Origin: Gloeobacterales cyanobacterium
GTDB lineage: Bacteria > Cyanobacteriota > Cyanobacteriia > Gloeobacterales > PMM-0068
Direction of reading: 5' to 3'
Length of the DNA: 24,802 nt
NCBI GenBank assembly: GCA_038245785.1
Contig: JBBRSB010000043.1
Span: 1 to 24,802 of the forward strand
Shown piece after piece: positions 128 to 16,890 of this stretch (position 1 is the stretch's first letter; the number at the start of each line of letters is the position of its first letter). The notes beneath the pieces are model-generated. The model saw nothing but the letters and a program-made list of their open reading frames with translations, did no database searches and was not told where the DNA came from. Made by a program: the position numbers and the translations under genes.

Positions 128-442
128 TCAGGGACGACTAGCTAGGTACGGTTGGGCAGATTTTGACTGTTCCTTGATAGGGGCAAAGCAAAAGCCCATC
201 CCGTTGCTCAAAGCTCCCCGATTGTAGTACCCGGCGACCTGTGTAAAGGAGTCGCTATTGAAACACCAAACTTTGCCTTCCTCAACAAGACGACACTTTT
301 TAGTCTTGGCGCAAATAGGGCAAGGCTTTCTGTTGGTGCGGGTTTTGGTAGGGGAGAATGAAGTCAAATCATCTCCCCTACGACGTAGCTCTCGGCTCCG
401 CCTGCCGGACACAGGGACCGCCCTATATTGAGTTGTAAACAA
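128..442 (-). CDS. Small zinc-ribbon protein (CPIC..C..C), resembling the N-terminal Zn-binding domain of cyanobacterial plasmid primases, with a 15-aa in-frame repeat insertion
   Basis: KPCPICAKTKKCR...VWC Cys pattern. RAVPVSGRRSRELRR is encoded by the 45-nt nested repeat at 376-420, and removing it keeps the frame (MFTTQYRGDDLT...). Confidence 0.55.
   Translation of the reverse strand: MFTTQYRAVPVSGRRSRELRRRGDDLTSFSPTKTRTNRKPCPICAKTKKCRLVEEGKVWCFNSDSFTQVAGYYNRGALSNGMGFCFAPIKEQSKSAQPYLASRP
376..420. repeat. Nested short dispersed repeats: 21-mer (392-412) inside a 24-mer
   Basis: CCCTACGACGTAGCTC[TCGGCTCCGCCTGCCGGACAC]AGGGACCG. CCCTA recurs at 376 and 421, 45 nt apart. Both units recur elsewhere in the window. 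Confidence 0.85.
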
Positions 443-537
443 CTAGAAATTAAGAAGAAGTTAATTCTTCTGCTAGTTGTTTGAAGCTTGCATTTTTCAG
501 TGGAAAGTGTCACAATGTACCCATTAATAAAGATTTT

Positions 538-577
538 AAAAACCACTCCAGTCCGCCAAGACAAAGGGGTGGTTTTT
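538..577. terminator. Stem-loop with A/T tails, possible bidirectional terminator or regulatory hairpin
   Basis: AAAAACCACTCC ... GGGGTGGTTTTT, just downstream of the CobA-like gene. Confidence 0.45.
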
Positions 578-586
578 TTCTGTGTG

Positions 587-1156
587 CTACCTCTCCGTAG
601 TGCGTACTTCAGTCCATTGGTCTGCCACAGAAGAGATCCCTGCTGGCATCTGAGGACCTGTAACGACTACATCTACATAAGAAGGGCGTTCTTTGAGCAA
701 TTGGAGGACTTCTGCTTCTGGGATGAAACCGTAGTTAACGGCTAAACTCAGCTCGTCCAGGATGATTAGGCCATAGCGTCCTTCTTTGACCTGGCGCTGG
801 GTGTACTCCCAAATTTCTTGGATAGCCGCTTGTTCATGAGGTTCTACTTGGTTGGTATCGATATGCCGCTCGATAGCACAATGGACCCACTTGAAGTTTT
901 GGCCCATTTCCGTGGGATGAGTAGGTCCCTGATTAATTCCACCCTTGAGGAACTGAACAAGCAGAGTCGGCGTACCTTGGCTAGCTACCCGCATGGCCTG
1001 GGATACTACTGAGGTGTTAAACCCCCTTTGTTTTGCGGTGAAAACCTGGACCATGCCCTCTATTGCTGGCCGAAGGGGGTGGTCCCCGAGTTCAGCCTGA
1101 GCTGCGCCGAAGGGTCTTGTCGAAGGGATTTCTGGGAATGTTAGGGCGTTAACCAT
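587..1156 (-). CDS. Cob(I)alamin adenosyltransferase (CobA/BtuR)-like P-loop family protein, cyanobacterial variant with degenerate Walker A
   Basis: Motifs VQFLKGG, LIILDEL, L..RP..DVVVTG, VADQWTE. The GKGKT/S loop is replaced by AKQRGFNT. Confidence 0.8.
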   Translation of the reverse strand: MVNALTFPEIPSTRPFGAAQAELGDHPLRPAIEGMVQVFTAKQRGFNTSVVSQAMRVASQGTPTLLVQFLKGGINQGPTHPTEMGQNFKWVHCAIERHIDTNQVEPHEQAAIQEIWEYTQRQVKEGRYGLIILDELSLAVNYGFIPEAEVLQLLKERPSYVDVVVTGPQMPAGISSVADQWTEVRTTER

Positions 1157-1226
1157 GAACTGTCTCCTGAGAATTAATAGTTGAAAACGGCGTCCGATGA
1201 GTAAGGGGGAGGGTGATAAGAAGGGT

Positions 1227-2060
1227 TCATGAGGAAAGCTCCAAATGCAACTGCATGTGACTAAGCGCAGCGCTCAGCTTGGGCGAGAGCCATAAGCATT
1301 CGGTTGCAGACCCTCCGCCATTGGTTTGGGCTTGCCAGGTAATCTGTTTCCAACCTTCATAAAGCTGGCCATACAGCGCAGAAGGATACCCACAGACAAG
1401 AGCCATTCCCTGGATAGTCTGTAGCTGTGTAGCTAGTTCTCGATGTCCTGACTCATCCATCTCATGGAGATACTGGGAATCTGCCTGTTTTTGCTTGCGT
1501 GTTTCCAGCAAATACGGTGGGTCCAGGAAGACCAGCGTTTCTGGGGTGTCCATGCGCTTAATAACTTCCGTGGCTGGCGTACACTCAATCTGGACGTGGC
1601 GCAAACGCTCAGCAATGCCCCAAAGATGTTCTGTGCGGTTCCAGTCATCTGTGACCGATTTGCATCTCGACTGCGTGTGCATATAGCGCCAACCAGACTT
1701 TGCCTTTAACGCCCCGGACCCCCACCCTTGCCAAGAGCGGATATACAACCGACGCGCACACTCCAAAGGATCTGAGGTAACCTCGAAGGCCAGTTTCAGT
1801 TCCTTGCGGCTGTAGGGGGTAAGTTCGATTGCCTGAATCAATTCTTGGGGACAGTCGCGTAAAATCTTGAAGAACGTCATCACGTCGTCATTGAGATCGT
1901 TCAAGACTTCAAAGGGGCTGCGGACTTTTTGCAAGAGAATAGCTGCGGACCCGCCAAACGGCTCTACATAGGTGAGATGCGGTGGGAAATAGGGAATGAT
2001 CCGTGCGGCTGAACGCCATTTGGAACCGTGGTATCTGAGAGCAGGTGAGAGCTTTTTCAT
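1227..2060 (-). CDS. DNA N6-adenine methyltransferase (D12/Dam family), orphan
   Basis: RYHGSK, YVEPFGGSAA (SAM-binding motif I), EVLND and FLDPPY (motif IV). No cognate endonuclease nearby. Confidence 0.92.
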   Translation of the reverse strand: MKKLSPALRYHGSKWRSAARIIPYFPPHLTYVEPFGGSAAILLQKVRSPFEVLNDLNDDVMTFFKILRDCPQELIQAIELTPYSRKELKLAFEVTSDPLECARRLYIRSWQGWGSGALKAKSGWRYMHTQSRCKSVTDDWNRTEHLWGIAERLRHVQIECTPATEVIKRMDTPETLVFLDPPYLLETRKQKQADSQYLHEMDESGHRELATQLQTIQGMALVCGYPSALYGQLYEGWKQITWQAQTNGGGSATECLWLSPKLSAALSHMQLHLELSS

Positions 2061-2326
2061 CGGCTAGACCCCCCTTTTTTGAAAAAGAAGAGCGGCTCGT
2101 TAACCTTCCTAAATAGGCGCAAGTGCTGAATAGGGAACCATTGGGGCTTGAGCTTTTTGGCCTGCACCTGGGCCAAGCTCCCCTCAAACTGGATAATCGT
2201 CCAGACTGTGTTGAAGAGTGTTATGGAATAGCCCCGCGCCACGAGGAACACCTTGTCACCGATAGCCAGTTCCTCCCCAGCGACAGTGGTGATGTATGCA
2301 AGATTTGTATGGGTGTTTGAATTCAC
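2057..2326 (-). CDS. Small hypothetical protein with KOW/SH3-like signature
   Basis: LAIGDKVFLVARGYS, paralogous to LSVGDLICLLARQYS in 2496-2804. GTG start overlaps the upstream stop; ATGA overlap with the methylase gene. Confidence 0.7.
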   Translation of the reverse strand: MNSNTHTNLAYITTVAGEELAIGDKVFLVARGYSITLFNTVWTIIQFEGSLAQVQAKKLKPQWFPIQHLRLFRKVNEPLFFFKKGGSSR

Positions 2327-2496
2327 AGGCCACCTCCGCTAAACCCGTGTGAGACGAGGTGCATAAGCTGACGGCTGCGTTTGTCTAGCTTGGAAACTCT
2401 GGATTTCTTCTTCCCGAATTCCTTGGCTAAACCCCGACGTTCCGCAGATAAATCCTGGGCATCCTCAATCGTTTTCTCTAAGTCTTGATAGGTCAT
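2323..2496 (-). CDS. 57-aa basic hypothetical protein not in the ORF track (MTYQDLEKTIEDAQDLSAERRGLAKEFGKKK...GGGL)
   Basis: TAATG overlap with the upstream gene at 2496 and GTGA overlap with the downstream gene at 2323-2326. It fills the operon gap exactly. Confidence 0.7.
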   Translation of the reverse strand: MTYQDLEKTIEDAQDLSAERRGLAKEFGKKKSRVSKLDKRSRQLMHLVSHGFSGGGL

Positions 2497-2804
2497 TACT
2501 GCCCCTCCAAATACGGAGTAGGAGCGCCCTGATTTGCGTAGAGAGCGACATCCGTTAGAGGGAAGGTATAGATGAGGAGATTGATCAACCCTCGAATAGG
2601 CTGCACTTTCACTAACCCTCGTTCTGGGGTTAATGCCTCAACTCTCCAAACTTCATCCTGTTGTTTCCGAGAGTATTGCCGAGCTAACAGACAAATCAAA
2701 TCTCCGACAGACAAGGCTTTGCCGTAAGCGTCCAACACCTTTGGTTGTGGCGCGGCTAGAGGAACTACTGACAAGTGGCGCGTTTTGGGTAAGGGGTGGA
2801 TCAT
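2496..2804 (-). CDS. Small hypothetical protein with KOW/SH3-like signature
   Basis: Likely start is ATG 2804 (ATGA overlap with the upstream stop, preceded by a purine-rich RBS). Paralog of 2057-2326. Confidence 0.7.
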   Translation of the reverse strand: MIHPLPKTRHLSVVPLAAPQPKVLDAYGKALSVGDLICLLARQYSRKQQDEVWRVEALTPERGLVKVQPIRGLINLLIYTFPLTDVALYANQGAPTPYLEGQ

Positions 2805-3322
2805 CGTTTTGCCCCCTTCCACGTCGTTCCCTTCTTCGGAGAGATGTGCAAGTGGCTGTGGGGGATAACTACAGCAAATTTGCTGGGTAGAAGTTCATAG
2901 GGGTAGAAGCTTCGGAAGACTTCTTCTGAAAAAGTGATCTCTGCAAAGCCCTCTCGGCAAGGGCAATTCTGAGTCATTTTCAGAAAGCGTGTTCCTTCGG
3001 GAATCGTGTACTGCTTCCCCCCAGTGCGGAGTATGCCAGGGTCGTTAGCCCAGGTGGTGTAGGCAGTTTTGGTTTTCTTGGGATCTATCTGCTGTTTAGC
3101 AGGAGGCGAGACGGGGGCAGCTTCAGCACTGATCGCCTTTTCAGCCACAGCCAATGATTGGTCGATCTCCGTCTCTTTAGGCAGGGCAGAGCGGGTGGCC
3201 TCACCGATACTGATTGGTTTTTTAGCCGTAGCTGTGGTGGACGACCGCACACGTTTCTTTTTAGGAAGGCCATTTAGCTCTAGCTGCTTATCATTCAAAT
3301 ACTCCAAGACTTGAGTTTTCAT
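2801..3322 (-). CDS. Hypothetical protein (Lys/Ala/Pro-rich N-terminus)
   Basis: 173-aa ORF with ATGA overlaps at both ends. Confidence 0.7.
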   Translation of the reverse strand: MKTQVLEYLNDKQLELNGLPKKKRVRSSTTATAKKPISIGEATRSALPKETEIDQSLAVAEKAISAEAAPVSPPAKQQIDPKKTKTAYTTWANDPGILRTGGKQYTIPEGTRFLKMTQNCPCREGFAEITFSEEVFRSFYPYELLPSKFAVVIPHSHLHISPKKGTTWKGAKR

Positions 3323-3537
3323 CGGGATGCTCCAACGCTTGTGTTTAGGTATCCAGAGGGTGCAAAGTCCGTCTCAATGAGGCTTTCAGTCTGCATAAAG
3401 CTGTTGGCAGATTGAACAAAACGTTGAGCGCAGTCCCCACCCAGAACACCAAGGTAGTACTGTGGTACCCGTAAGTTAATACCTGCAGTGACCCTATTAG
3501 GGTCTTGTGGGATGGTTAAAGTACCGTTAGGGTACAT
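3319..3537 (-). CDS. 72-aa hypothetical protein, probable first gene of the leftward operon
   Basis: ATG at 3537 (MYPNGTL...), ATGA overlap at 3319-3322. The longer 234-aa version would overlap the HTH gene antisense. Confidence 0.55.
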   Translation of the reverse strand: MYPNGTLTIPQDPNRVTAGINLRVPQYYLGVLGGDCAQRFVQSANSFMQTESLIETDFAPSGYLNTSVGASR

Positions 3538-3576
3538 GCGATAATTCGGGGTGTACAAATGCCTTTCATGGCCTGC

Positions 3577-3867
3577 GTGAATAAAAAAATTCTTCAAGAT
3601 CGGCTTAAGGCATTGAATTGGACCCCTTACAGGTTGGCAAAGCAGTACGGCAGATTTCGTACTGGTGAACCTGAGGAAAATATTGACCCTAAGCGCTTTG
3701 ATAAAACCGTTAAGAAGATCTTGAATAACCCTGATGTCTCTAGCCTGACGACTCTTGAGGCTCTCGTTAAAGCGATGGATGGAAAACTGGTGATTATCTG
3801 GAATACCCGTGAAGAAGTGGTCACGGGGCAGAAAATGGTAGAACTTGATGAAACCGAAGAAGAATAA
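3577..3867 (+). CDS. XRE/Cro-like helix-turn-helix regulator
   Basis: LQDRLKALNWTPYRLAK...SSLTTLEALVKAMDGKLVI pattern. Divergent from the operon and followed by a hairpin. Start could be 3559, 3568 or 3577. Confidence 0.75.
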   Translation: MNKKILQDRLKALNWTPYRLAKQYGRFRTGEPEENIDPKRFDKTVKKILNNPDVSSLTTLEALVKAMDGKLVIIWNTREEVVTGQKMVELDETEEE

Positions 3868-3869
3868 AT

Positions 3870-3894
3870 AGTCGCTGAAGTCCATACAGCGACT
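3870..3894 (+). terminator. Hairpin after the HTH gene
   Basis: AGTCGCTG-N9-CAGCGACT, 2 nt after the stop codon; weak U-tract. Confidence 0.45.
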
Positions 3895-4111
3895 GTTAGT
3901 ACTAATTACAAATAGGTTTTTTTGCGCTAATCTGTTCATACGCTTCTCTATCGGTGTGTAAAACACCGCTTGGGTTACAAGCGTTTTTGAGGGGGAGTCG
4001 TAATGACTCCAGATTTGGTTCAAGACCCTGCCTGGCCGTTCTAGTGGAAAGCAGGGGATCTAAATTGAAAGCCGTTCTAGTGTCACCTAGGACGGTTTTC
4101 GCTTTCTGAGG

Positions 4112-4256
4112 ATTACAACCCTCACCAGCCCCATAAGCGTGTCCGGCAGGCGCAGCCGAGAAGCTCACGTAGGGCCGATGTGTTACCAATGACTCGATGC
4201 TTCCGCATGTGTTGTCAGAATTACAAACCTCACCTTTCTGAGAGAAACCTTAGCAC
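4112..4256 (-). CRISPR. Degenerate orphan mini-array A (2 repeats, 33-nt spacer, possible third remnant ending at 4086)
   Basis: Repeat ATTACAACCCTCACCAGCCCCA|TAGGGCCGATGTGTTAC (4112-4186, interrupted by 36 nt) and ATTACAAACCTCACCTTTCTGAGAGAAACCTTAGCAC (4220-4256, 37 nt). Spacer is 4187-4219. Same repeat family as 12171-12450. Confidence 0.5.
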
Positions 4257-4314
4257 TGATAAAACAATCGGACAATAGGCTCAATTCCCCTTCAGGGGAG
4301 ACTTTCAGACCCTT

Positions 4315-4456
4315 TATACGCGAGCTTTATAGGCAAAACTATACGCGAGCTTTATAGGTCAATCCCTGAAAAACCATCCTCATAGGGCTTTGAAATTTAG
4401 CTGTCAAAAAACTATACGCGAGCTTTATAGGCAAAACTATACGCGAGCTTTATAGG
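4315..4456. repeat. Four identical 19-bp direct repeats in two pairs (iteron-like; candidate origin or partition site)
   Basis: TATACGCGAGCTTTATAGG at 4315, 4340, 4413 and 4438 (spacing 25/73/25). Confidence 0.9.
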
Positions 4457-4585
4457 TCAGAGGATGTCGCTGGTAGTTGGACGCTATCCCAAGTGTGTTT
4501 TGTCTCTCCAAACACCACAGACAGAGAAATCCAGCAAGAATACAAATATATGAAATTTCTTACAGAGTAAAGTGAGGAGGCAAAA

Positions 4586-4790
4586 ATGAACCATCCCGAA
4601 GAACAACCCGTCTTTGAGCGCGGAACTGGGAATGTCTATACAGATCTCGGACTGGACGACGCTGACGAACTGTTTGCGCGGTCACAGCTAGGCTTTCAGG
4701 TTTGGAAAATTCTCAAGGAATCAGACTTGAAACAGCGAGAAATCGCAGCACTCTTGGGCATCAAACAGCCCGAAGTGTCCCATTTAATAG
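4586..4790 (+). pseudogene. Truncated XRE-family (HigA-like, HTH_37-type) antitoxin/regulator
   Basis: FERGTGNVYTDLGLDDADEL...LKQREIAALLGIKQPEVSHL with GAGGAGG RBS. After VSHL the frame runs antisense into the GNAT 3' end, so the normal C-terminus appears lost. Confidence 0.7.
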
Positions 4791-4802
4791 AGCCTGAAGA
4801 TG

Positions 4803-5744
4803 TCACCGCCAATCATCTAATACAAAAATACCTGGTCGATTGTAACCAGGCTCGTTTGGTTTATGCATTACTAAACCCGTGATTTCAGTGCGAAAACGAC
4901 GAGCAACCATTCTGGTATAGGCTTCATCACGGCTGGTATTCACTCCAGCAAGAAGACGCAACATTTTTTGAGTTGCCCCAAACGCTTCACACAGATCGAG
5001 CAACTGTTCAAACTGTTCCCCCGCTTGAGCTCCTGGGCGCACTGCTCCAAATTTGACGTAGCATACATCGCTACCTGCTTCGCTTCCTGCACCACAATGA
5101 CAAATAGCAAATCCTGCTAAGTCTGTTTCATCCTAAAGCAAAACAGTATCACCTAAATTCTGAGCATGAACTGCAGCAATCTCATGCGATAAATCTAGCC
5201 CTGCATAGATGGCATTTGTGAGTTCGGAACACTGCTTGAGACAATGCAATCGCTGCTCCGGATCGAATTCAGAGTATTTCGTTCCTGGCAAGTCCTGCTG
5301 AGCTGCCTGAATTGGTTTTGCCATGATGAAGGTTAGAAAACGTGGGTAGAACCCGAATTTCTGATAAAGTGCATGGTGCATTGGGCTATTCGGAAAGGTA
5401 AATAACCCGGTCTGTCGCGTCCCCCTTTGAGCAAATTGAGCAATCACAGGTTCAATGAGACGCTGAGCAATACCCTGCCCCCAAAAGTCAGGATGAACAC
5501 TGAGCGGTCCGAAAAAACCAACACTGCCCCACTGGGTGGCTATATTGGAACCAACCAGCTTTCCATCAGCCTCAGCTACGAATGCCGCTGTTGGATCAAC
5601 TTTCCATCGGGGTTGAATATAGTTTGCATCCCCACCAAAATCGGTGGGTTGAGGCAATCGAATAAAAGTGCCAAAGGCGAGTCGAAAGATATGGTCAGCC
5701 TCCGATAGCTCATTTTTTTGAAGGAGCCGAATAGAGATATCCAT
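4803..5744 (-). pseudogene. Two-domain GNAT acetyltransferase with one in-frame TAG (5133-5135)
   Basis: LSVHPDFWGQGIAQRL acetyl-CoA motif and LYQKFGF. The frame continues past the stop (LL*DETDLAGFAICHCG...) into ORF 4803-5042. Confidence 0.85.
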
Positions 5745-6050
5745 AGCGGCGAAACCTGCCAGAAATAGCGTCAGTTTAGCCATAAATATTTGCAAGCTTG
5801 GAGCAATGAATTTAATCTTTACTAGGAGTTAATAACCTCTCTTACGAGGGCTAAGAGGGAAGGTCACACTACTGTTTAGACTGAAATTCCTGCCTATTCA
5901 GTTTATTTTGATGATCAGGTAGATATTTTCAGCCTAGTCCTAGCATCAAAAGGCTACAATGAACAAACTTTTGTACGGTATAGCTATACCGTACTTTTGC
6001 TAGATTCATGCCACACTCCTCTGATACTCTTGCTCTAAGACGGAGAGAAG

Positions 6051-6413
6051 TCAATGATTGTCCAAAGCCTCTTGAACGGCTCTATGGATTTCATTGGTAT
6101 TTACGTCAACCTGGTCAGACTTTGCATAAATCAGGAGTAATAGGACACACTGAGGAGACAAAAGCTGATAGATGAGTCGATAACCGCCACTTTTTCCTGT
6201 AGGAATATCGCTATTTTTAGCGCGGGCCTTAAAAACGGTAAAATCAGACCCCTTTATCTGGTCTCCAATAAAATTGCCAACTTGAAGTTCAAAAAGAATG
6301 GGTTGCATATCTTTCTGAATTGATCGAAAACGTTTAGCTAAAGACTTAAGACGGCGTTTAAACGGAGCAGTAAAGCGAATTTCAACAGTCGAAAAATCAG
6401 ACACCAATGCCAT
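6051..6413 (-). CDS. RelE/ParE-superfamily type II toxin
   Basis: FKRRLKSLAKRFRSI..GDQI..VFKAR..GKSGGYRLIY..LLLIYAKSDQ. Overlaps the upstream small acidic gene; start may be GTG 6404. Confidence 0.88.
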   Translation of the reverse strand: MALVSDFSTVEIRFTAPFKRRLKSLAKRFRSIQKDMQPILFELQVGNFIGDQIKGSDFTVFKARAKNSDIPTGKSGGYRLIYQLLSPQCVLLLLIYAKSDQVDVNTNEIHRAVQEALDNH

Positions 6414-6651
6414 CCCATAAATCAGCCAGCGGGAAAGATTGCCCTGCTTGAGCTTGTCGAACCGAGTCTTTCAAATCCTGTAAAATTTGTTCTTTAGAGT
6501 CAATGTCAAAGTCAACATCTGATTCAATAGCGAGAGCCTCAAAAGAGTTCAATAAGGACTCCCAAACCTTAACAGGAACGAGAACGTCAGTTTTTTCACC
6601 CTGAGCATTGGTGACATACTTAACGAGCGCGCGAAAATTTTCGACAGTCAT
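6397..6651 (-). CDS. Cognate antitoxin
   Basis: 84-aa acidic protein (YVTNAQGEKTDVLVP..W; FPLADLWDGI) directly upstream of and overlapping the toxin. Confidence 0.8.
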   Translation of the reverse strand: MTVENFRALVKYVTNAQGEKTDVLVPVKVWESLLNSFEALAIESDVDFDIDSKEQILQDLKDSVRQAQAGQSFPLADLWDGIGV

Positions 6652-6815
6652 AGTTATGACCTTACTTTAGATACTCGAGTCTTAAACTTACTCGGAGGGA
6701 AGAAATACGGCAAGCCACTAAATGTAGTAGCTATTGCATGGATGCTCAACGGAAAAACCCTATTTATGATCCTGATATATTTTAACTCCCCCTTGCGGAA
6801 TTCCCTAGCCGCCAT

Positions 6816-7025
6816 CCTTCGACAAGCGTTCGACTGAGGCTTCGACAGTGAGCACGTGTGTCTGGCAGGCGTGGTCCCCGTGTCCGGCAGGCGCAGCCCA
6901 CAGCTGCGCTTACAGCCATGTCCGGCAGGCGAAGCCGAGAAGGCGAGAACCGCTCACGCCGCAGTCTTAAGAAACAAGCCCAAGCTATTAAGCACGGAAT
7001 GCCCTTCGTCGAAGCTCAGGGGCCT
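6816..7025. repeat. Cluster of multiply nested short dispersed repeats
   Basis: 21-mer copies at 6858-6871 (partial), 6880-6900 and 6918-6938 lie between the split halves CGTTCGACTGAG (6827) and CGCTCACGCCGCAGT (6951) of a 27-mer. An intact 24-mer CCCTTCGTCGAAGCTCAGGGGCCT is at 7002-7025. Confidence 0.85.
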
Positions 7026-7055
7026 CCTACCGAAGTAGTATATCTGGGGAATTTT

Positions 7056-7850
7056 TTATGAGTTCTCTGGATTCGAGTTTGCTTGAGCTACGGCCTCGAT
7101 TTCTTCTAGGGGAAGATGGAGTGCTTGGGCTATCTGTTCTAAGCTGAGTCCGAGTTTGAGTAATTCAGGGACGGTTTCCAGCTTGCCTTTTACCGAACCT
7201 TTGCTCTCTATCGACTTATAAAGCCTAGACTGCTCAAACTCACTTTCTGTTATCGTCAGCATCGCTTCTATCTCCTCGTCGCTCATACTAGAGAACTTGT
7301 AGGAAACCACCGTCTCTATGAGTTCTATCATATCCCTTCGGAGCGGTTCCCTTGGCTCAGACCGTGCTTGCTCCAGCAGTCGTCTTGCTTTTTCTGCTGC
7401 TGTGATTTCTGGTTCTACAACCAGTTTGAGGATACCCAGGCTCATGGGCGTTCCTTCCTCATTCACTTCATCCAAATAAATCCGCTCAACTTGATTACAG
7501 TTCAGCAGAACTCGATAGTTCGATGAATTATCGGGCTCTACATTTCTACTGGAGAAAATGACTACAGCACGCCAATCATTGGGCTCTGGGTACTGTCTCA
7601 AATACAGAAAAATCTCAGAAAAGAACCGAGCATAAAATTGGGGATCTTCTTGGAACTGCACTTCTGCAAAATAAACGGACTGGGCAGGACGACTCGGCAG
7701 AAATATGCCATCGATCCGAAAGGCAGTCTGTTTGATTTCCACGGACCGAAATTGATAGCCCTCTGCTTGTTCTGGAGACTGACCAATAAGGGAGAAGAAA
7801 CTCTCTGAGAGGGTCTGGAAGATTCGGTAGAAGAGGCTATCTGTTTTCAC
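7056..7850 (-). CDS. Rpn-family recombination-promoting nuclease / putative transposase (DUF2887 type)
   Basis: MKTDSLFYRIFQ, YQFRSVEIKQTAFRIDGIF, YFAEVQFQ (PD-(D/E)XK-like), and C-terminal LLKLGLSLEQIAQAL. Confidence 0.92.
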   Translation of the reverse strand: MKTDSLFYRIFQTLSESFFSLIGQSPEQAEGYQFRSVEIKQTAFRIDGIFLPSRPAQSVYFAEVQFQEDPQFYARFFSEIFLYLRQYPEPNDWRAVVIFSSRNVEPDNSSNYRVLLNCNQVERIYLDEVNEEGTPMSLGILKLVVEPEITAAEKARRLLEQARSEPREPLRRDMIELIETVVSYKFSSMSDEEIEAMLTITESEFEQSRLYKSIESKGSVKGKLETVPELLKLGLSLEQIAQALHLPLEEIEAVAQANSNPENS

Positions 7851-8118
7851 AGCGCTTAGTTTAGCGCAGACTGGCTGTCGACATCTCCAGGATCTATTGC
7901 TCTCTTCCCGTCAGGGTGCGCTACGCGCAATGCTTCGGTATAGCTCAGCAACAAGAGCTGGCTTTTCTTGCCAAACACGCCAATAAAGCAGGGCTTCTGC
8001 GCATTAAGCTAAAGATAGGGAAGCTGATGTCTCACTGCTCCCAAGCGGAGTAGCTCCGTTTCGTTATCAAGAATCCCTTGAAATTTGCTAGAATCCTCCT
8101 GCCCTTAAGGGAAAAAAC

Positions 8119-9201: not shown

Positions 9202-9570
9202 TCACTTAGCCAGACATTCGGGAACTTCTAAACTCCATCTTCCAGGCTTAATTATCCAGCCTTTAGTCTCTAGTTCCACACGGAGATCTGCTAGTTGTTT
9301 ACGAGCTTTGGATGCCTTGGGACAGTGAAATTCTTCTTGCAAACTCTCTTGCTCATTCAGGCAGGTCACAGCTCTCTCAAGGAATATTTTGCAATAGGCC
9401 ACATGGTCATTCACAATCGCTGAAGCGACCGCATGGTATAAAGCTACGCCTCTTGAGCCATCTTGGTTAATTATTTCGCACACCATTTCCAGTCGGGTTA
9501 AACGCATCCCGCATTCTTCCAAGTGTTTTAGATACTCTTCGAGCTTCAAAAAACTGAGATATGATTCCAC
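9202..9570 (-). CDS. Hypothetical protein
   Basis: 122-aa ORF with GGAGG RBS upstream of the GTG start; no recognisable motif. Confidence 0.65.
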   Translation of the reverse strand: MESYLSFLKLEEYLKHLEECGMRLTRLEMVCEIINQDGSRGVALYHAVASAIVNDHVAYCKIFLERAVTCLNEQESLQEEFHCPKASKARKQLADLRVELETKGWIIKPGRWSLEVPECLAK

Positions 9571-10395
9571 TACCGTAAACCTCCAAAAAGCCTTAGCAAA
9601 TTTCCTTGGCCCAATCTTTGCAAAGTTGGCTACCCGTTTGGGTTGCGCTTATGTTCTACATATGTTCTGCTTTTGTTATGGAAACCTCCCAGTCTTTGCG
9701 TATGCAGAGGTCTCTGCAGTTGAGTTCATTTGGACAAACTGCTGCACAGAGAGCCTTTGCGCTGTTGGGGATGTCTCAGAGTGTATTTGTAGCTCAGCTA
9801 GGGATTAAGCATCAGCGGAGCATTGCACGTCAGTCCCTGAGCCGATATTTAAAGGGTGAGCGGGTTGAACGAGAGTTGTTTTGTATTTTGTGTACTGCTT
9901 TGAACCTTGAGGTTTCTGTAGTCATTGAGATTTCAGGGAAAGTTGATTGTGAACAGACAAATGGCCCTCAAACTTTCGATTACGTTCCAAAAGATCGTGA
10001 TGATTTTTATCATTACTATTCTCGCCAAATGTCTAATGCTAGAGTTGAGATTTGGCTTACGAGTGATGGGTTCAATATGGAAAATTTTATAAGTGCACAA
10101 TATGCTCAGATCATGATGCAGGGAATGACTCAAGCTTTAAGAAGGGGCGTAAAAATTCATCGATTCCAAATGCTTAGGACAATGCATCTGAACTGGATTC
10201 CGGAGTTGAAAAAACTTAAGCAGCAATTTGAAAAGTATTATTTTATCTATGTCAATCCAGCATTTGATGCTATTGAAAACTTTTGTGTTGTTGACCCTGG
10301 AACTCCCTATACTCTAACTGAAGCTATGTTTATAGCGATGGAGACACCTACAAAACAATATTCGGTTGCGGATATAGCTACGTTTTCACATGGAA

Positions 10396-11007
10396 ATGAA
10401 CAACCCAATCGCAGCAAGCTGCGGGGTATCTAAAGCGGAAACAACCGTATCTGTTGTGCTCTAGCTTTCTCTTCTTCGCTTCCCTGCTCTTGAATATACT
10501 TTTTAACAAGCGTTCGACTGAGCTCACGCCGAAGTCTCGCTGTTCACTCCGTCGCCAACCGTTCCAATGTAGCCACCATCGCTCCAAAATTCCCCACCCC
10601 ATAGCTGTTTACGGATTTCTGGAAATTGGATAAACATCTGCCGGGCACTAATACTTTCGAGAATCTGCATCACACGGGAGGGAGCATACTTTGGAGCTGC
10701 ACCAACAAACAGATGCACATGGTCTCCATCCGTACCCATCTCCTCCATCTCAAACCAATAGCGCTCTGCAATCTCTTTTAAAACCTGCTTCAAATACACG
10801 CACCGTTCCTCGACGGTTAACAAACGCTGACGATATTTGATGCAGAAAACCATGTGATACCGAATCTGATACACGCAATGACTCGCACGTTGGAGTTTCT
10901 CGCGTTCCGCTGCCGGACACATTGCCAGATTATAGGGCCGACCTCACGGTCAGCAGACTGCTTATCCCAATCGCAGCAAGCTGCGGGGTATGCGCAGTCG
11001 TTTCTAG
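10396..11007 (-). mobile_element. IS200-type element (tnpA only), 612 bp
   Basis: Subterminal hairpins ATACCCCGCAGCTTGCTGCGATTGGG at both ends. Inserted 3' of TTGAT (11012-11008) without a duplication; right end is TTCA(T). Confidence 0.88.
10430..10922 (-). pseudogene. tnpA: IS200/IS605 Y1 HUH transposase, inactivated by a 25-nt insertion
   Basis: HCVYQIRYHMVFCIKYR, DHVHL (HUH) and LWGGEFWSDG. The catalytic Tyr helix (VKKYIQEQG) lies beyond the insertion at 10511-10535, which introduces TGA and a frameshift. Confidence 0.9.
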
Positions 11008-11245
11008 ATCAACTATGGTCGCATCAATTTCTGAATCGATTTCAGATGATGCTTGAGCAAGATAATACAATCAATCTTTCTCTAGACTCACTAGATCAGC
11101 TTTACGATGACCTTTTAATAGAGCGAACTCAGAAAGTGGAACGATGGTGTCAAGTACATCATGTTTCTACTCTTGAAGAGTTGGCTAAAGGTACAGGTAT
11201 TTTTGACCAAGAGATATTAATACGATTCCACCAAAAGTACTCCTG

Positions 11246-12175
11246 ATGAAAAAAATATTGGTCATGTTCACTGGTGGCACCATCTCTCAAAAAGCAGAGG
11301 GTGGGAAAATGCGTGTTGCCTACACTAGTCAAGATCTGTTTATTAACATTGACACGGACATTGAATTAGAATTTGTCGATGTTTCTCAAGCTAACGGCGC
11401 GGAATTAAGGCTAGAGCAACTTTTCAACATAAGAGACTTAGTTTCTAAGCACTCTGACTGTGATGGATACTTGCTCGTTACCGGTACCGACTCTATGGAG
11501 GAAATCGCTTTTGGACTTGACTTGCTCATGGAGCCGAAAAAACCCTTTGTAATTTCTGGTGCGGCGAGGCCCACTGACATCCCCGGCTACGATGGGGAAG
11601 CCAATCTCCGAGCTGCCCTCGCTGTTTTGGAATCACCAGAAGCTCTTACTTTGGGTGTGCTCGTTGTGATGAACGACAATATTCACCCAGCCCGCTATCT
11701 ACGAAAACATGATTCCGCATTGATGGGCGCATTATTCCAGAGTCACCCTGGCCCAATAGCTCAAATTCGCAGTGGCAAACCGTTGTTTTATTACTGTGGA
11801 CTACCTCCAATAAAGCGTTTCACAAAGGCCCAGCGGGAAAAGGCAAGTAACCGCGTGATGATATGGACTATGACAGTAGACCCAATACTTCCCGAGGCCC
11901 TGCTAGAAGACCTCGATGGTTTGGTGCTTGCAGGTATGGGAACTGGCTCGATTTCTTTATCAATAGTTGAGCAACTTGCTCCAAAATGAACTTCTCAAAT
12001 TCCTGTTGTTATAACTTCCCGCTGTCCAGTAGGGCTAAATTACGATGACTACTACTACAAAGGGAGTCTTGAGAAATACGAAAGCAAAGGTTTCCGGATC
12101 CTAGAGTATGAAAAACTAAATCCACTCCAGGCTAGATTACAACTTATTTTGGAAATGGCTTCAGAGTTATCTTAA
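11246..12175 (+). pseudogene. L-asparaginase/glutaminase family protein with one in-frame TGA (11987-11989)
   Basis: FTGGTI and VTGTDSMEE (both catalytic Thr), RKHDS, GLVLAGMGTG. After the stop the frame continues as TSQIPVVITSRC...LNPLQARLQLIL to TAA 12173-12175. Confidence 0.88.
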
Positions 12176-12450
12176 AATTATCACCAGCTCCGAAGGGCCG
12201 ATGTCACTGCCAACTCATCTTCTGAGTTTATCTACATATTCTTACAACCCTCACCAGCCCAGTAAGCATGTCCGGCAGGTGCAGCCAAGAAGCTCATGTA
12301 GGGCCAGTGTCACATCGGACATATTACGATTAATTCGCCCTGCCTTACAACCCTCACCAGTGCCTAGGAACCAGTGTCACGTTATTTACCCAGGAACTTT
12401 CTTATTAATCATAACCCTTGCAGTCACCGATTCCTAAAACCTAGTGTCAC
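12171..12450 (-). CRISPR. Degenerate orphan CRISPR-like array B: four 37-nt repeats, three spacers (33, 30, 33 nt)
   Basis: Repeats at 12171-12207, 12241-12313 (37 nt plus 36-nt insertion), 12344-12380 and 12414-12450. Reconstructed minus-strand repeat: GTGACACTGGCCCTACTGGGCTGGTGAGGGTTGTAAG. Spacers are unique. Confidence 0.7.
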
Positions 12451-12613
12451 TTTCTATTGGAGCCACTGATATAAACAGGCTATAAGCCAATGCGCAAAAA
12501 TAAGTATTAATCTACTAACCTATGGACTCTATCCCTCTGTTTCAGTCAATGTACCCTCTCTAATTGAGCGAGCTGTTAGCAGCGCTACAACTAATGCTGA
12601 GGGAAAGTGCACT

Positions 12614-13003
12614 ATGGGCAATGCTTCCTATGCTAATTGGGTTATCACTAAAGGAACGGGAACGTTCAACGCCTGCATCAATGCTAAACGCGACGGTATT
12701 ATCAATGCTGAATACATGGGACAGTGGTTAGTCTGCCTATGGCATCATGCAATGCAGACCGCCAGCTTGCAGCGAGGGGAGTGGGATCTGGTGGAATGTG
12801 TGATCGCAACCCATAGCACCCCGTACGGCAATGCTCAACTAAGCGCGATTTCCAACTTGGTGGAGATTAACTTTGATGATCAGGCACAAACCCACAACAT
12901 TAATGTAGGCCATCCGCCAGAAGGGGTAACCCTAACACGACTGAGTGAGGCGATTAGCGGCCTACTGGCTGAGTATCCTCCAACGGTAAGCATGGCAGCT
13001 TAA
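12614..13003 (+). CDS. Hypothetical protein (may originally have started at ATG 12522 with a frameshift)
   Basis: 129-aa ORF; the frame is open upstream to about 12520. No motif recognised. Confidence 0.55.
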   Translation: MGNASYANWVITKGTGTFNACINAKRDGIINAEYMGQWLVCLWHHAMQTASLQRGEWDLVECVIATHSTPYGNAQLSAISNLVEINFDDQAQTHNINVGHPPEGVTLTRLSEAISGLLAEYPPTVSMAA

Positions 13004-13111
13004 GCTTTGACTCTTCTGCTTTGGAGCTGTTTCGTTTATATTATTGCTGCCAACGCAATTTTTGGAGATGGCTTCAGATCCGTACGTTAGTTGATAGGTT
13101 AGGTTTTTAAG

Positions 13112-14167
13112 ATGAGCGAACCGACGACTGAACAGACAGAGCGCAACTATCAGGCCATCGGCACGGTTGAGGGAATTCTAGAACTCTCGGATTCCTGTGC
13201 TCTACTGCATATGGGAGAGACTGCTTTTCCAGTATCTGTCTCTCCGCTAGTCCTGAAGAAGCATACCCCAGGACAGATACAGCGCTTTCGGGTATATCCA
13301 AAGCTATGGCAGGGGAAACCCAGCTTTTCCCTCGTCTGTGTAACCGAATCACCAGTCAGTCCCCTTGTGCTCAAGGGTTGCTGGCAAATCCATCAAGACT
13401 TGCCCTACCTGGTGATCTATCGGAATCAGATACGCAGCAAGAGAGATCAGAAGTTGTTTCATCTAGTGTCTGTCCAGTGGCCCGATGCCCCGAAGCCCAA
13501 TGGTAAATTCTGGGAGTTGGAAGCAGAAATCCGTGACGGCGCATTTATAGTGAACCGTGCCGAAGGCCCTTTCGCGCCACCCCCACGGGTAAAACCGCCA
13601 AACTTAGCTCATCAAAAATTCGGTAAAGGGGCAAAGCATCAAAAAACGAAGCCCCAGTTTACGAGTGAGTCCCCGCGTATAGTCAAACCCCAGCGGGTAG
13701 AAGCACAGGTCCAAGCAACTCCATTGACCGCTCAGGAGATCCGAAAGATGGCAATTCCCACCAAGATCCAAGTCACCTGCAAAATTTCAGAAGTCCCCCC
13801 TTGCCGAGAGCTGCCGTCGAAAGAGATTGAGTTTTTCTTAGCGGATGGGGACCGAATATTGAACGTGCGGATGAAGGCCAAGCAGTTCAGCAAGCTTACC
13901 CAACACGGGTTTGAGCAGTGGATAGCTGCTATTTCTGGAGAATTGGGACCAGCTACAGAATCAGGCTTCGAGTTGGTGAATGCGAGTATTCAGATTTTTG
14001 AGAAGTTATCTAAACCCAAAAGAGACTCAGAACCCGCTAGCGGAAAAATTCAAGAAGTCGCATCCGTTCCACACACCTCTTCAGCGCATCCACCTGAGCT
14101 GAAGGGAGAGGAGCAACCGAAAGAACGGCAGCGCAAAAATTTATTGTCCGGCGTCCGGTTGGCTTAA
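13112..14167 (+). CDS. Cyanobacterial plasmid protein with C-terminal 'FinO-like' domain
   Basis: YQAIG..G...FRVYP N-terminal domain, and KIQVTCKISEVP...W.AAISGELG..T..GFEL....IQIFEK C-terminal domain typical of this family. Confidence 0.75.
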   Translation: MSEPTTEQTERNYQAIGTVEGILELSDSCALLHMGETAFPVSVSPLVLKKHTPGQIQRFRVYPKLWQGKPSFSLVCVTESPVSPLVLKGCWQIHQDLPYLVIYRNQIRSKRDQKLFHLVSVQWPDAPKPNGKFWELEAEIRDGAFIVNRAEGPFAPPPRVKPPNLAHQKFGKGAKHQKTKPQFTSESPRIVKPQRVEAQVQATPLTAQEIRKMAIPTKIQVTCKISEVPPCRELPSKEIEFFLADGDRILNVRMKAKQFSKLTQHGFEQWIAAISGELGPATESGFELVNASIQIFEKLSKPKRDSEPASGKIQEVASVPHTSSAHPPELKGEEQPKERQRKNLLSGVRLA

Positions 14168-14268
14168 AGATTAGCAAGGTCGATGCTCTGGTCCCGCAGC
14201 CTCTGAGCGAAGCGTTCTAAGTTTTCACACAGTCTCGCGATCTGTTTGCACAAAAGGTATCCAGAATT

Positions 14269-15039
14269 CTATCTAGCGGTATAGCCCCCATCAATAATTA
14301 ACTCAGTGCCTGTAACAAATTTAGACTCATCCGACGCAAGATATAGCACGCCATAAGCAACATCATCTGGCTCTCCAACATGACCAATGGGATGGAGACT
14401 ATCAAGCTGCTTTCTGAATGTCTCAACTCCTGCCGGTGATTCTTTGGCTAGCTCCTCAACGAGCGGTGTCCAGATAAAGCCAGGATGTATGGAATTGACC
14501 CTTATGTTGTCCTTTGCATAAATCAGGGCGTCATTCTTGCTCATCATCCGAACTGCCCCTTTGGATGCATGGTAAGGAGGCAAGTCGGCAGCACCTATGA
14601 TTCCATAAATGGAAGACATGTTTATAATGCTTCCCCCACCGGACTTCTGCATCAACGGAATTGCCTGTTTAGTACAAAAGAACACACCGCTGACGTTCAC
14701 ACTTATGACTTTGTCCCATTCCTCCCTGGATATCTCATGGGTAGGTTTGTTCACCCCAGCGATACCAGCGTTGTTGATGAGTACGTCTAATGACCCAAAT
14801 TCATGAACAATGTCAGTGAAAACGCCGCCAACGCTGTCTTCGTTAGACGTATCAAGATGCCAGTATTTTGCTATTCCACCGAGTTCTTCGATTTTAGCTA
14901 CAACTTTCTGTCCTTCATCATCTTTTATGTCCGTTACAGCCACTTTTGCGCCTTCTCTAGCCAATAGCAGACAAGTTGCCTTACCTATTCCTGATGCGCC
15001 CCCAGTAATGACAGCGACCTTGCCTTCTACCCTTTTCAT
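14269..15039 (-). CDS. Classical SDR oxidoreductase (NAD-dependent; glucose-1-DH/hydroxysteroid-DH-like)
   Basis: TGGASGIG, NNAG, NMSS, YHASK, IRVNSIHPG, DGGY; AAGGA RBS. Confidence 0.95.
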   Translation of the reverse strand: MKRVEGKVAVITGGASGIGKATCLLLAREGAKVAVTDIKDDEGQKVVAKIEELGGIAKYWHLDTSNEDSVGGVFTDIVHEFGSLDVLINNAGIAGVNKPTHEISREEWDKVISVNVSGVFFCTKQAIPLMQKSGGGSIINMSSIYGIIGAADLPPYHASKGAVRMMSKNDALIYAKDNIRVNSIHPGFIWTPLVEELAKESPAGVETFRKQLDSLHPIGHVGEPDDVAYGVLYLASDESKFVTGTELIIDGGYTAR

Positions 15040-15062
15040 AATGGTTTCCTTTGGTATTTGAT

Positions 15063-15172
15063 CTTAAAACGACTGCGCATACCCCGCAGCTTGTGGCCCC
15101 TGAGCCGCGTCGTGTCCGGCAGGCGAAGCCGAGAAGGGCTGCGATTGGGATAAGCAGTCCGCCGACCGCGAC
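15063..15172 (+). mobile_element. Solo left end of the same IS200 family, with a 45-nt nested repeat in its hairpin
   Basis: TTGAT|CTTAAAACGACTGCGCATACCCCGCAGCTTG[15094-15138]CTGCGATTGGGATAAGCAGTC matches the reverse complement of about 10945-11007. Confidence 0.85.
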
Positions 15173-15217
15173 TTGATTAAATCGAGAGCTAAGCTTTTCG
15201 CTCTTCGAGTCTTTCTT

Positions 15218-16135
15218 CTACGCCGCCCCTGAACCCGACGGGCTCGCAGCGAGGGCGAACATCGCTGCACGAATAGCGGAGGCGGTCACAGCCGGTAGCT
15301 CCAGTTGGGGCGTGAGGCCCGTGTCGGGGATCACAGCGAAGTAGCGCACCGCAGGGGTCAGAGCCGCCAGACGTCTCCCGGTCTCAGGCGAAGCGTAGTT
15401 ATTTTTTTCGCCCCACAAAAAGGCGGTGGGCACAGAAAGCTTCGGCAGGTAGGCGGCCAGGTCCAAGCTCAGGTTGCCCTTGAGAAATGAGAAAGCGGCG
15501 TAGCGGGCGTTAGGCTGGCGTGCTGACTCATAGTAGGCGTCCACCATCTCCTCGCTGATGCGCCGAGGGTTAGCAAACAGGACCCGCTCCATATAGGCGC
15601 GGATGGTGGTACGGTTCTGGATGCCTTGGTCGTATAGGAACTGGTTGAGCAAAGCGATGGAGTCCACCCACCCGAACAGGCTGCCGTTGTAGGGGCGTCC
15701 AAAATCGGACAGGCCACTGGGGTTGACCAACACCAGGTGCTCGCCCAGTTCTGGCTGTTCCGTGGCCTCCCACACACTCAAAGCGGCCACCAGGGTGGCA
15801 GCAATAATGGTCGGGCGCGCTGCACCAGTGTTCTTGATGAACTCGCGGATGGCCGTGCGGTAGATCCCGGCGGTGTATTCAAACGGCTGGTGTTCGGAGT
15901 AGCCCCAGCCAGGCAGGTCAGGCGCCAGCACCCGGTACTCGGCGCTGAAAGTCGGGTAGACTCGGGACCACTCGAACGAAGAGGAGCCGCCACCAAAAGT
16001 GTGTAGGAACACCAGCGTACCGGTTGCATCCCGGCTCTGAGGCATGGCCTCGTAGTAATTGATCTTCCCGACAGTGGTGGCAACGTTGCACCGCTCAAAC
16101 CCGGGCGGCTGGAAAAGAGTATTCGAATCGCTCAT
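15218..16135 (-). CDS. Alpha/beta hydrolase-fold protein (cyanobacterial family, atypical catalytic residues)
   Basis: LVFLHTFGGGSS, VLAPDLPGWG, PTAFLWG. No GxSxG. Visibly more GC-rich than its flanks. Confidence 0.88.
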   Translation of the reverse strand: MSDSNTLFQPPGFERCNVATTVGKINYYEAMPQSRDATGTLVFLHTFGGGSSSFEWSRVYPTFSAEYRVLAPDLPGWGYSEHQPFEYTAGIYRTAIREFIKNTGAARPTIIAATLVAALSVWEATEQPELGEHLVLVNPSGLSDFGRPYNGSLFGWVDSIALLNQFLYDQGIQNRTTIRAYMERVLFANPRRISEEMVDAYYESARQPNARYAAFSFLKGNLSLDLAAYLPKLSVPTAFLWGEKNNYASPETGRRLAALTPAVRYFAVIPDTGLTPQLELPAVTASAIRAAMFALAASPSGSGAA

Positions 16136-16252
16136 GGCTAGGCTCTTCGCTTCTTGCTTCAAGTATGACAGGGATGAGGTAACCCGAGTAAATAGGGCTA
16201 ACTATTGGTTCTAAGACTTCTGTGATCCAGTTTTTGGGATATAGATGTGAAT

Positions 16253-16520
16253 TCCGGAAAAGATGGCAATTCCTACAAAAATCCAAGTCACCTGCAAAAT
16301 TAATTAAGTCCCCCCTTGCCGAGAGCTTCCGTCTAAAGAGATTGAGTTTTTCCTAGCAGATAGGGACCGAATATTGACAGTGCGCATGAAGGCAAAGCAT
16401 TTCAGCAAGCTTACCCAACACGGGTTTGAGCAGTGGGTAGCTGCTATTTCTGGAGAGCTAGGGCCAGCTACAGAAACAGGCTTCGAGCTGGTGAATGCGA
16501 ATATTCAGGTCTTCGAGAAG
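16253..16520 (+). pseudogene. Partial diverged duplicate of the FinO-like C-terminal domain (copy of about 13740-14003)
   Basis: MAIPTKIQVTCKIN*VPPCRELPSKEIEFFLAD...QVFEK, with TAA at 16305-16307 where the intact copy has GAA. Confidence 0.88.
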
Positions 16521-16530
16521 CAGCGTAAAG

Positions 16531-16647
16531 TGGCCTCTGTGTCCGGCACAAGGTACTGCGCTCCGTAGGAGCATTGACGAAGTACCGCGCCCCGTAGGGG
16601 CATTGAGGCGGTAGGCAGTAGGCGGAGCCGACAGCTATGTCGAGGGG
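16531..16647. repeat. Three-level nest: 24-mer > 21-mer > 72-nt insert containing two tandem ~27-nt hairpin units
   Basis: TGGCCTCT[GTGTCCGGC(16548-16619)AGGCGGAGCCGA]CAGCTATGTCGAGGGG. The insert contains GTACTGCGCTCCGTAGGAGCATTGA and GTACCGCGCCCCGTAGGGGCATTGA. Confidence 0.8.
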
Positions 16648-16890
16648 GATATGTGTAGCAGAAAGAACAAGCAGCCCATCTTCTTCAACCACAGTGGGAA
16701 AATTATCAGAGTTGATGTCAGGATTTTGCATCTGTTCCTTCAAGATCAATTGTTTTTGGCCTAAGCCTTCCACTAGTTCTAATGCAGAGACTCCCTGTCC
16801 CCCTGCTATCTCCAGTATCCCTGTCTAGGCATACTCAGAAATAGTATCCCAGTGTCCTATGTCATGTCGGGGCTTGGCTTTGCCATAAAC
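16648..16890 (-). pseudogene. Degraded small DNA-binding (RHH/CopG-like) gene
   Basis: YGKAKPRH...ISEYA*TGILEIA..QGVSALELVE.LG pattern with TAG at 16825-16827; start not identifiable. Confidence 0.35.

Follow-up and report, generated by a model that had tools for sequence, protein, structure and literature searches.

Nested hairpin modules of the small-dispersed-repeat type in a Gloeobacterales genus, and a candidate GIY-YIG nuclease for their spread

We analyzed a family of very short repeats on a 24,802-nt contig of a Gloeobacterales cyanobacterium, the whole of which (contig C43 of genome G000) is referred to here as the window; the genome has 5.0 Mb at 48% GC and is HIP1-poor. The repeats, modules of 16 to 36 nt that nest in one another and in genes, are real and have been mobile at least in the recent past, and we are confident that they are mobile modules of the type known as small dispersed repeats (SDRs). 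A subfamily of small GIY-YIG nucleases, whose genes are flanked by hairpins that form the body of some of these modules, is a plausible candidate, judged from sequence, for the enzyme behind SDR-type spread. Throughout, G000 is the source genome, G001 and G002 are its congeners, C precedes a contig number, and X marks a sequencing run.

Seven uninterrupted copies of a 21-nt module lie in the window at no more than 2 mismatches, whereas 200 Markov simulations gave 0.005 on average, which rules out a chance origin; a variant (10899–10919), a partial copy (6859–6871), and an interrupted copy (16540–16632) come in addition. An assembly artefact was also ruled out. Contigs from run X1 are identical to the window at 3900–4344, 6817–7108, 10983–13915, and 16407–16800 and reproduce the main clusters without differences, so the repeat clusters in those stretches are no assembly errors; X1 possibly derives from the window's own sample and is hence not independent, and the run searches covered assembled contigs only. 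All of the units listed in the original prediction, which had been made from the window's letters, were found where it placed them or at most one base away. Its 21-mer proved real, but the position had to be moved by one base. In G000 as a whole the 21-mer as first given has 12 exact copies and 28 near copies (at most 3 mismatches), and 21-mer density per 100 kb is 28 in the window, 2.1 in contigs of 8–60 kb, and 0.33 in contigs of at least 60 kb.

The ends of the modules are exact. The 21-mer begins with TGTC and ends with GAG or GAC. Peeling of nested copies gave 34 21-mer sites in G000, a catalogue that leaves out about ten 21-mers interrupted by 36-mers, and pooling of G000, G001, and G002 gave 61 sites in 45 distinct contexts. 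The preceding base was G in 42 of these contexts, the base at −2 was a pyrimidine in 42, and A followed in all 45. The target had been given as Y|(G/C)AR; because the preceding G belongs to the host, it is in fact YG|A, as a loose rule. The catalogue's 63 rows for the 24-mer held chance rows and rows of the repetitive extragenic palindrome (REP) type, and were filtered to 24 tagged copies, every one of which is preceded by G; 20 are 24 nt long, 3 are 23 nt long, and one of 25 nt is a pattern artefact. The 25-mers (n = 6) and 27-mers (n = 4) of G000 all follow G, 8 of the 10 at GAG|CT. The 16-, 21-, 24-, 25-, and 27-mers thus have the same strand polarity, with the host G on the 5′ side, and nested copies interrupt other modules at G|A or GAG|C steps. 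The 36-mer is found inserted into the 21-mer and into other 36-mers, with its junction at A.

The 16-mer, which had been read as a 15-mer, behaves differently. All 14 copies end in T, and 10 of them sit in hairpin-module hosts that normally have A at that place (56 A-forms versus 4 T-forms among uninterrupted copies); on this comparison the module appears to replace one host base on insertion, for a net gain of 15 nt. The proposal that clean removal restores the host sequence therefore fails for this module. Similarly, lengths divisible by three are the rule for the 21-, 24-, 27-, and 36-mers, but the 25-mer shifts the frame of an IS200 TnpA gene, and the three 23-nt copies depart from the rule as well.

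The common core of the modules is a G-N-A loop on a stem of 3–5 bp. All 3 bp around the loop are retained in 33 of the 34 catalogued 21-mers, with three stem types and a free middle loop base; the search pattern permitted these pairings without forcing them. The 36-mers have three outer and three inner stem types, with covariation in both stems. The structure of the 21-mer is based on covariation, and ViennaRNA folds the module without the GNA mini-hairpin. GCGNAGC mini-hairpins are described as far more stable as DNA than as RNA and as nuclease-resistant (PMC13037366), and this DNA-favored stability points to a single-stranded DNA (ssDNA) stage in the spread of the modules. A preference for hairpin DNA as a target had been suggested, and this is correct insofar as 25 of the 45 contexts of the 21-mer are other hairpin modules, mostly at G|A steps. 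As a preference for hairpin DNA in general it was not supported: at the 20 remaining sites, folding was no stronger than at random YG|A positions (p = 0.44); 2–3 of these 20 “plain” sites are modules that the pattern missed, and the resulting bias would be towards folding, not against it.

Filled and empty alleles, which the original prediction had proposed to compare, were found among relatives, and in both directions. A 48-nt nest in a CobO-like gene is missing from the homolog in G002:C143, and contigs from X5 and X8 skip 1069–1125 with 7 letters between, a net difference of 48. A 45-nt nest (376–420) is missing from G002:C228; reciprocally, G002:C228 carries a 21-mer at a site that is empty in both the window and G002:C143. 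The IS200 copies of C43, C31, and C88 differ in their module sets, and filled and empty paralog pairs were found for IS200, for an IS256-like element, and for other repeats. None of the several pairs shows a target duplication, in agreement with the earlier claim. A chromosomal PEP-utiliser gene has a 21-mer in G000 only and is empty in G001 and G002 (gap of 18, diverged linker). Modules inserted in genes add 7–20 residues to proteins. When the flanks of 27 sites in G001 and G002 were searched against G000 by blastn, none could be paired, the genomes being too diverged. The present-day activity that the original prediction had proposed is less certain than mobility in the past: decay mutations are seen in the module copies of the window, and the best enzyme candidate (see below) is frameshifted in G000.

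Further insertions were noted elsewhere. At about 5640 in G001:C308 (L015) a tRNA-Lys(CTT) gene has a 21-mer in its variable region; ARAGORN calls the tRNA as 95 nt with the 21-mer and 74 nt without it. A 60-nt in-frame nest of a 24-mer, a 16-mer, and a 21-mer occupies G000:C5:33016–33075 within an open frame of 1544 codons, and further in-frame modules were seen in IS256-, IS481-, and IS110-like frames (family names by sequence reading) and in a ShlB/FhaC-family gene.

The 21-mer is present in all 3 genomes of the genus (19 exact copies in G000, 9 in G001, and 18 in G002) and in none of 38 other relatives, and so the lineage specificity that had been proposed was upheld. In a GTDB-wide search, 26 of 31 stretches came from the two congeners. 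Three hits outside the cyanobacteria, in which the stem is unpaired, appear to be chance matches, and two in another cyanobacterial metagenome-assembled genome have G002 flanks and end at contig ends, which probably reflects binning spill-over. Across the sequences searched, the 21-mer is confined to the genus. The loop is GCA in all 27 exact copies of G001 and G002, and GAA, GGA, or GCA in G000; the uniformity of the former, versus the mixture in the latter, suggests separate bursts that started from a few source copies. The 24-mer in its strict form (16 copies in G000) was not found in G001, G002, G003, or G376, the 36-mer was found in 0 of 150 other genomes of the class, viral contigs yielded 0 matches to the 21-mer and the 27-mer, and the nest at 16525–16650 had no match among plasmid sequences.

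SDRs are said to have been described in Nostoc punctiforme PCC 73102 and, for the Nostocaceae, by Elhai and colleagues in 2008, reportedly as units of about 21–27 nt that nest in themselves and in other repeats and have a conserved structure with compensatory changes. The 21-, 23–24-, 25-, and 27-nt modules fall in this size class, and filled and empty sites without target duplication, nesting, and compensated stems are all present here. The 36-mer and the base-replacing 16-mer lie outside the range of 21–27 nt, and the present host belongs to a HIP1-poor Gloeobacterales lineage. SDR5 is presented as a unit of 21 nt that separates bases 3 and 4 of HIP1 and is found in heterocystous cyanobacteria only (PMC4390886, PMC5861425, PMC13756078); one of these papers reports no SDRs in HIP1-rich cyanobacteria outside the Nostocaceae (PMC5861425), and a 2026 paper still calls the function of SDR5 unknown (PMC13756078). 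We found a HIP1-inserted 21-nt unit that fits SDR5 in four genomes belonging to a single family (144, 88, 32, and 7 copies), and also in plasmid records of Nostoc and relatives. It shares with our 21-mer the sequence AGGCGNAGCC, GNA loops, and a CG|A junction, a comparison that supports the SDR-like kind that had been proposed. However, G000 has 0 copies of the HIP1-inserted unit, and our 21-mer consists of one mini-hairpin, starts with TGTC, and uses YG|A, so that it is not itself a member of SDR5.

G000 also contains modules of SDR-like build with two GNA hairpins (46 matches), 21–24 nt long, in larger G/C-rich hairpin repeats (for example at C24:53290, C2:265276, and C44:24652). Empty forms of these sites exist, and one subtype also seems to swap a host A for T. 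In architecture this family comes nearest to the Nostoc unit inserted in HIP1; the window itself contains none of its copies.

The candidate enzyme, of a class that the original prediction had not named, is encoded by one of five GIY-YIG matches in G000. This gene (G000:C16:63390–63685, frameshifted) has hairpins on both sides, which contain nested 21-, 25-, 27-, and 36-mers. It belongs to a subfamily of PF01541 homologs of about 100 aa (~90–130 aa; 1369 hits) with the invariant residues Y5, Y15, G17, R25, H29, and E62, for which NCBIfam has no family. Nostoc, Pseudanabaena, Microcystis, and Geobacteraceae are among the named hosts, and intact homologs occur in the first three. A hairpin of the form TGAGC..GYCGAA lies within 400 nt of the gene in 10 of 12 genome loci (our own locus counted), the other two having looser variants, versus 0 of 18 loci of distant GIY-YIG controls. 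The same hairpin was found in 75 of 80 metagenome loci, on both sides in 44, versus 0.4% of shuffles. It makes up the body of the 24-, 25-, and 27-mers, and it has GCGNAGYCGA in common with the 21-mer; the flanking hairpins also have the positions of the 24-mer's 5′ tag. Self-insertions of 24 nt stand beside the subfamily gene in other organisms, and locus L180 contains an identical 27-mer twice. The median number of these hairpins per class-level genome was 58 with the gene versus 1 without it (9 versus 176 genomes, among which kin are not independent). In four genomes (L076, L079, L081, and L082) the gene follows a similar upstream coding sequence, restriction-modification-like by look, and at L086 it follows a tRNA gene and is enclosed by a hairpin doublet present in two direct copies.

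A literature search that covered few subscription journals brought up no paper that links SDRs with a nuclease, and the only related paper was that on the Ssn nucleases. SsnA is a small GIY-YIG protein flanked by hairpins of its own, of the NTS/SRM type; its cuts in ssDNA fall a few bases upstream of these hairpins (Chenal et al. 2025, PMC11893778). The authors note an IS-like hairpin-gene-hairpin layout; the main text shows no mobilisation or nested inserts, and the string “cyanobacteri” occurs nowhere in it (PMC11893778). The present subfamily resembles Ssn in being encoded by a single-domain gene of ~100 aa, in its oriented, 5′-tagged flanking hairpins, and in its conserved Tyr, Tyr, Arg, His, and Glu. 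In contrast, the SRM search pattern matches 0 of 80 subfamily loci. Pseudanabaena yagii, which encodes the subfamily protein P0005, is scored NO for SsnA homologs and for strict cd10448 and YES under the loose criterion only (PMC11893778), and that YES presumably comes from P0005. As the SRM pattern found no match and the strict score of P. yagii is NO, we did not file the subfamily as Ssn. Its nearest solved relatives are the UPF0213 proteins 1ZG2 and 1YWL.

Many independent insertions, the junction rules, and the association of gene and hairpin are observed directly, and the mechanism that we propose is built around them. Modules would enter new sites without target duplication, likely as folded ssDNA. 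By analogy with SsnA, a small GIY-YIG nuclease may cut the module hairpins, nicking transient ssDNA 3′ of G at or near cognate hairpins; nicking would release or prime a short folded module, which host repair would join or copy into another nick. The one-base loss that accompanies the 16-mer would reflect end trimming, and it seems to fit cut-and-repair better than exact strand transfer. We put this full mechanism forward tentatively, as the likeliest of the explanations considered but one that falls short of being probable. We are more doubtful of the specific identification that it invites, in which the GIY-YIG subfamily, widespread and distinct from Ssn, would be the missing SDR-type enzyme, nicking ssDNA 3′ of G at hairpin G-A steps, with its flanking hairpin spawning the 16–36-nt modules that are pasted in-frame into genes.

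Several observations weigh against assigning this role to the nuclease. The only G000 copy of the subfamily gene is frameshifted. The gene was not found in G001 and G002 (94% and 97% complete, fragmented), which have 9 and 18 near-uniform 21-mers, nor was it found with our query in 19 of 26 hairpin-rich genomes (at least 25 copies); for Nostoc punctiforme PCC 73102 the table of the Ssn paper has NO even in the loosest of its GIY-YIG columns (PMC11893778). True nesting was seen by eye at 6 of 91 gene loci, and by pattern at 11. At the 80 foreign loci there was no 21-mer and no convincing 16- or 36-mer beside the gene, which restricts the direct gene link to the 24-, 25-, and 27-mers, and the 21-mer has only a 10-base core in common with the flanking hairpin. 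The base at the junction of the 36-mer is A rather than G. Finally, GIY-YIG enzymes are not known for strand transfer, so the nuclease itself would not account for the joining step.

An alternative is an IS200/IS605-type HUH (Y1) transposase acting in trans. It would move the modules as ssDNA circles by peel-and-paste, as REP-associated tyrosine transposases (RAYTs) are proposed to do for REPs, and the absence of target duplication, strand-specific junctions, and ssDNA hairpins are established HUH signatures (PMC3116915). There are Y1 matches in all three genomes of the genus (6 in G000, 1 fragment in G001, and 1 in G002), and 3 of the 6 G000 genes have modules within 500 nt. These three genes represent one IS200 family, however, and the modules lie inside the gene and the ends, where they are targets; the end hairpins of IS200 are unlike the modules, and the other Y1 loci have no modules. 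The link to RAYT genes that the original prediction had proposed for testing was not supported. REPs are similar to the modules as short tagged hairpins that occur as dimers and as in-frame intragenic copies, and the 21-mer starts with TGTC; the CGTC-tagged REP families have stems of 8–9 bp and are listed for five phyla that do not include Cyanobacteria (Di Nocera et al. 2013, PMC3733652). In our case the inserted unit is a single module and not a doublet, the GTAG tag is absent, and none of the G000 Y1 loci showed a RAYT-like gene with modules on its flanks, so that the modules do not belong to a REP/RAYT (REPIN) system. Moreover, G003 has a full-length Y1 match and zero 21-mers, and a one-base target loss would be unexpected from exact transesterification. 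We consider a Y1 transposase unlikely.

The remaining explanations appear weaker still. If no dedicated enzyme were involved, mini-hairpins might stall replication, and template switching or repair might copy a module to the stalled site. The nesting of similar modules would provide short homology for this, deletions between short repeats are seen in the nest at 6827–6965, and the enzyme candidates were not found in the two congeners. But the ends are base-exact in 45 of 45 contexts, about 17 of which have no similarity to any module, and each module keeps to a fixed length and to a junction rule of its own; we regard this route as quite improbable. It is very improbable that some enzyme of another class moves the modules and that the part of the GIY-YIG cassette is limited to having provided the parent hairpin, or to an SsnA-like restriction of incoming ssDNA. 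The demonstrated role of SsnA is restriction of transforming DNA, not mobilisation (PMC11893778), and the co-occurrence of gene and modules is patchy, yet no other class is flanked by modules among the four gene classes tested; a link to Rpn genes, which had been proposed for testing, was not supported, with a module within 500 nt of 1 of 9 genes. The least probable route, by an RNA copy and a reverse transcriptase of the group II intron type, is compatible with the reverse transcriptase matches in G000 (11) and G002 (3). The association with these genes that had been proposed for testing was not supported, none of the 11 in G000 having a module within 500 nt; no reverse transcriptase was found in G001, which nevertheless carries 21-mers, and the conserved three-base G-N-A loop is the DNA-stable form.

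How elements of 20–30 bases move has been an open question since SDRs were described. The present case extends SDR-type elements to a HIP1-poor Gloeobacterales genus, with further modules, and it supplies exact ends, a one-strand target rule, reciprocal filled and empty alleles, and, in the base-replacing module, a chemical clue. Without the enzyme link it is a good further example of a known curiosity. With a named small candidate enzyme, SDR movement becomes bench-testable, and the GIY-YIG subfamily may provide a second set of nucleases that cut ssDNA in a sequence-specific way. If the identification of this subfamily as the missing SDR-type enzyme were true, nuclease-plus-repair micro-transposition would be common to Nostoc and the earliest-branching cyanobacteria and would be a steady source of short protein insertions.

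Within the window, the modules occur at the following places. On the minus strand, a 24-mer with a nested 21-mer (391–411) forms the 45-nt nest at 376–420 that has no counterpart at the matching place of G002:C228. The CobO/BtuR-like host gene (PF02572; 587–1156, minus strand) carries a 16-residue in-frame insert near its N-terminus, the 48-nt nest at 1080–1127 (plus strand), a 24-mer with a second 24-mer variant at 1091–1114. This 24-in-24 nest and a 36-in-36 nest at 16549–16620 had been missed, although nesting as such had been recognized correctly. The latter is part of four layers at 16531–16647 (plus strand), where a 24-mer contains a 21-mer (16540–16632), which contains a 36-mer (16549–16620), which contains another 36-mer (16578–16613). 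On the minus strand at 7002–7025 a lone 24-mer lies 3′ of a DUF2887 (Rpn-like) gene.

The cluster at 6827–6965 (plus strand) is a multi-layer nest with a 25-mer outermost and a 27-mer (6839–6952) inside it. Within the 27-mer are a reversed 16-mer (6854–6912), a partial 21-mer (6859–6871), a partial 24-mer from 6872, and 21-mers at 6881–6901 and 6919–6939. The original prediction had recognized this cluster but had overlooked the further 27-mer, the reversed 16-mer, and the partial 24-mer. Simpler versions of the nest exist on C8, C16, C40, and C72 of G000, and X1 and X5 contigs omit 6853–6947. The nest has presumably lost two internal pieces by deletion at short repeats.

An IS200-type element at 10404–10991 (minus strand; end hairpins 10404–10429 and 10966–10991; TnpA open reading frame (ORF) 10524–10922) is a target of two modules, both on the minus strand. 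The frame-shifting 25-mer at 10511–10535, in the 3′ part of tnpA, is missing in the C88 paralog, and the 21-mer variant with the third compensated stem at 10899–10919, near the tnpA start, is missing in the C31 paralog; an X3 contig covers 10678–10989 with 21 gap letters at this variant. On the plus strand at 15094–15138, a 24-mer with a nested 21-mer (15113–15133) sits in the loop of a lone IS200 end (~15055–15171), the empty counterpart of which is the IS200 end at 10966–10991.

Two nests lie in CRISPR-like repeats. A degenerate 37-nt repeat at 4112–4186 (plus strand), in a CRISPR-like remnant at 4112–4233, contains a 16-mer (4134–4170) with a nested 21-mer (4140–4160). In an orphan CRISPR-like mini-array of four degenerate 37-nt repeats with ~33-nt spacers (12171–12449, plus strand), repeat 2 (12241–12313) contains a 16-mer (12263–12299) with a nested 21-mer (12269–12289). 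As both nests occupy the same repeat position, they probably go back to one ancestral event. X3 and X5 contigs omit 12168–13100, that is, the mini-array and the next ORF. We take these host repeats to resemble type V-K CRISPR repeats; an Rfam search with them returned no family at gathering score, and a Cas12k gene was found in 0 of 5 genomes searched, G000 included.

The window region as a whole looks mobile, because the CobO-like module is present twice in G002 and the contig carries accessory genes (CobO-like, D12 adenine methylase, DUF2887, IS200 TnpA, and TnpB). The TnpB gene (IS605-type; 19763–20935) is intact and has no TnpA alongside. Two 47-nt blocks 98 nt apart at 4315–4459, each made of a 25-nt unit twice, are iteron-like. 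A 351-aa gene of unknown function is partly duplicated (13744–14005 and 16259–16520; 262 nt, 89% identical), and the second copy ends beside the four-layer nest.

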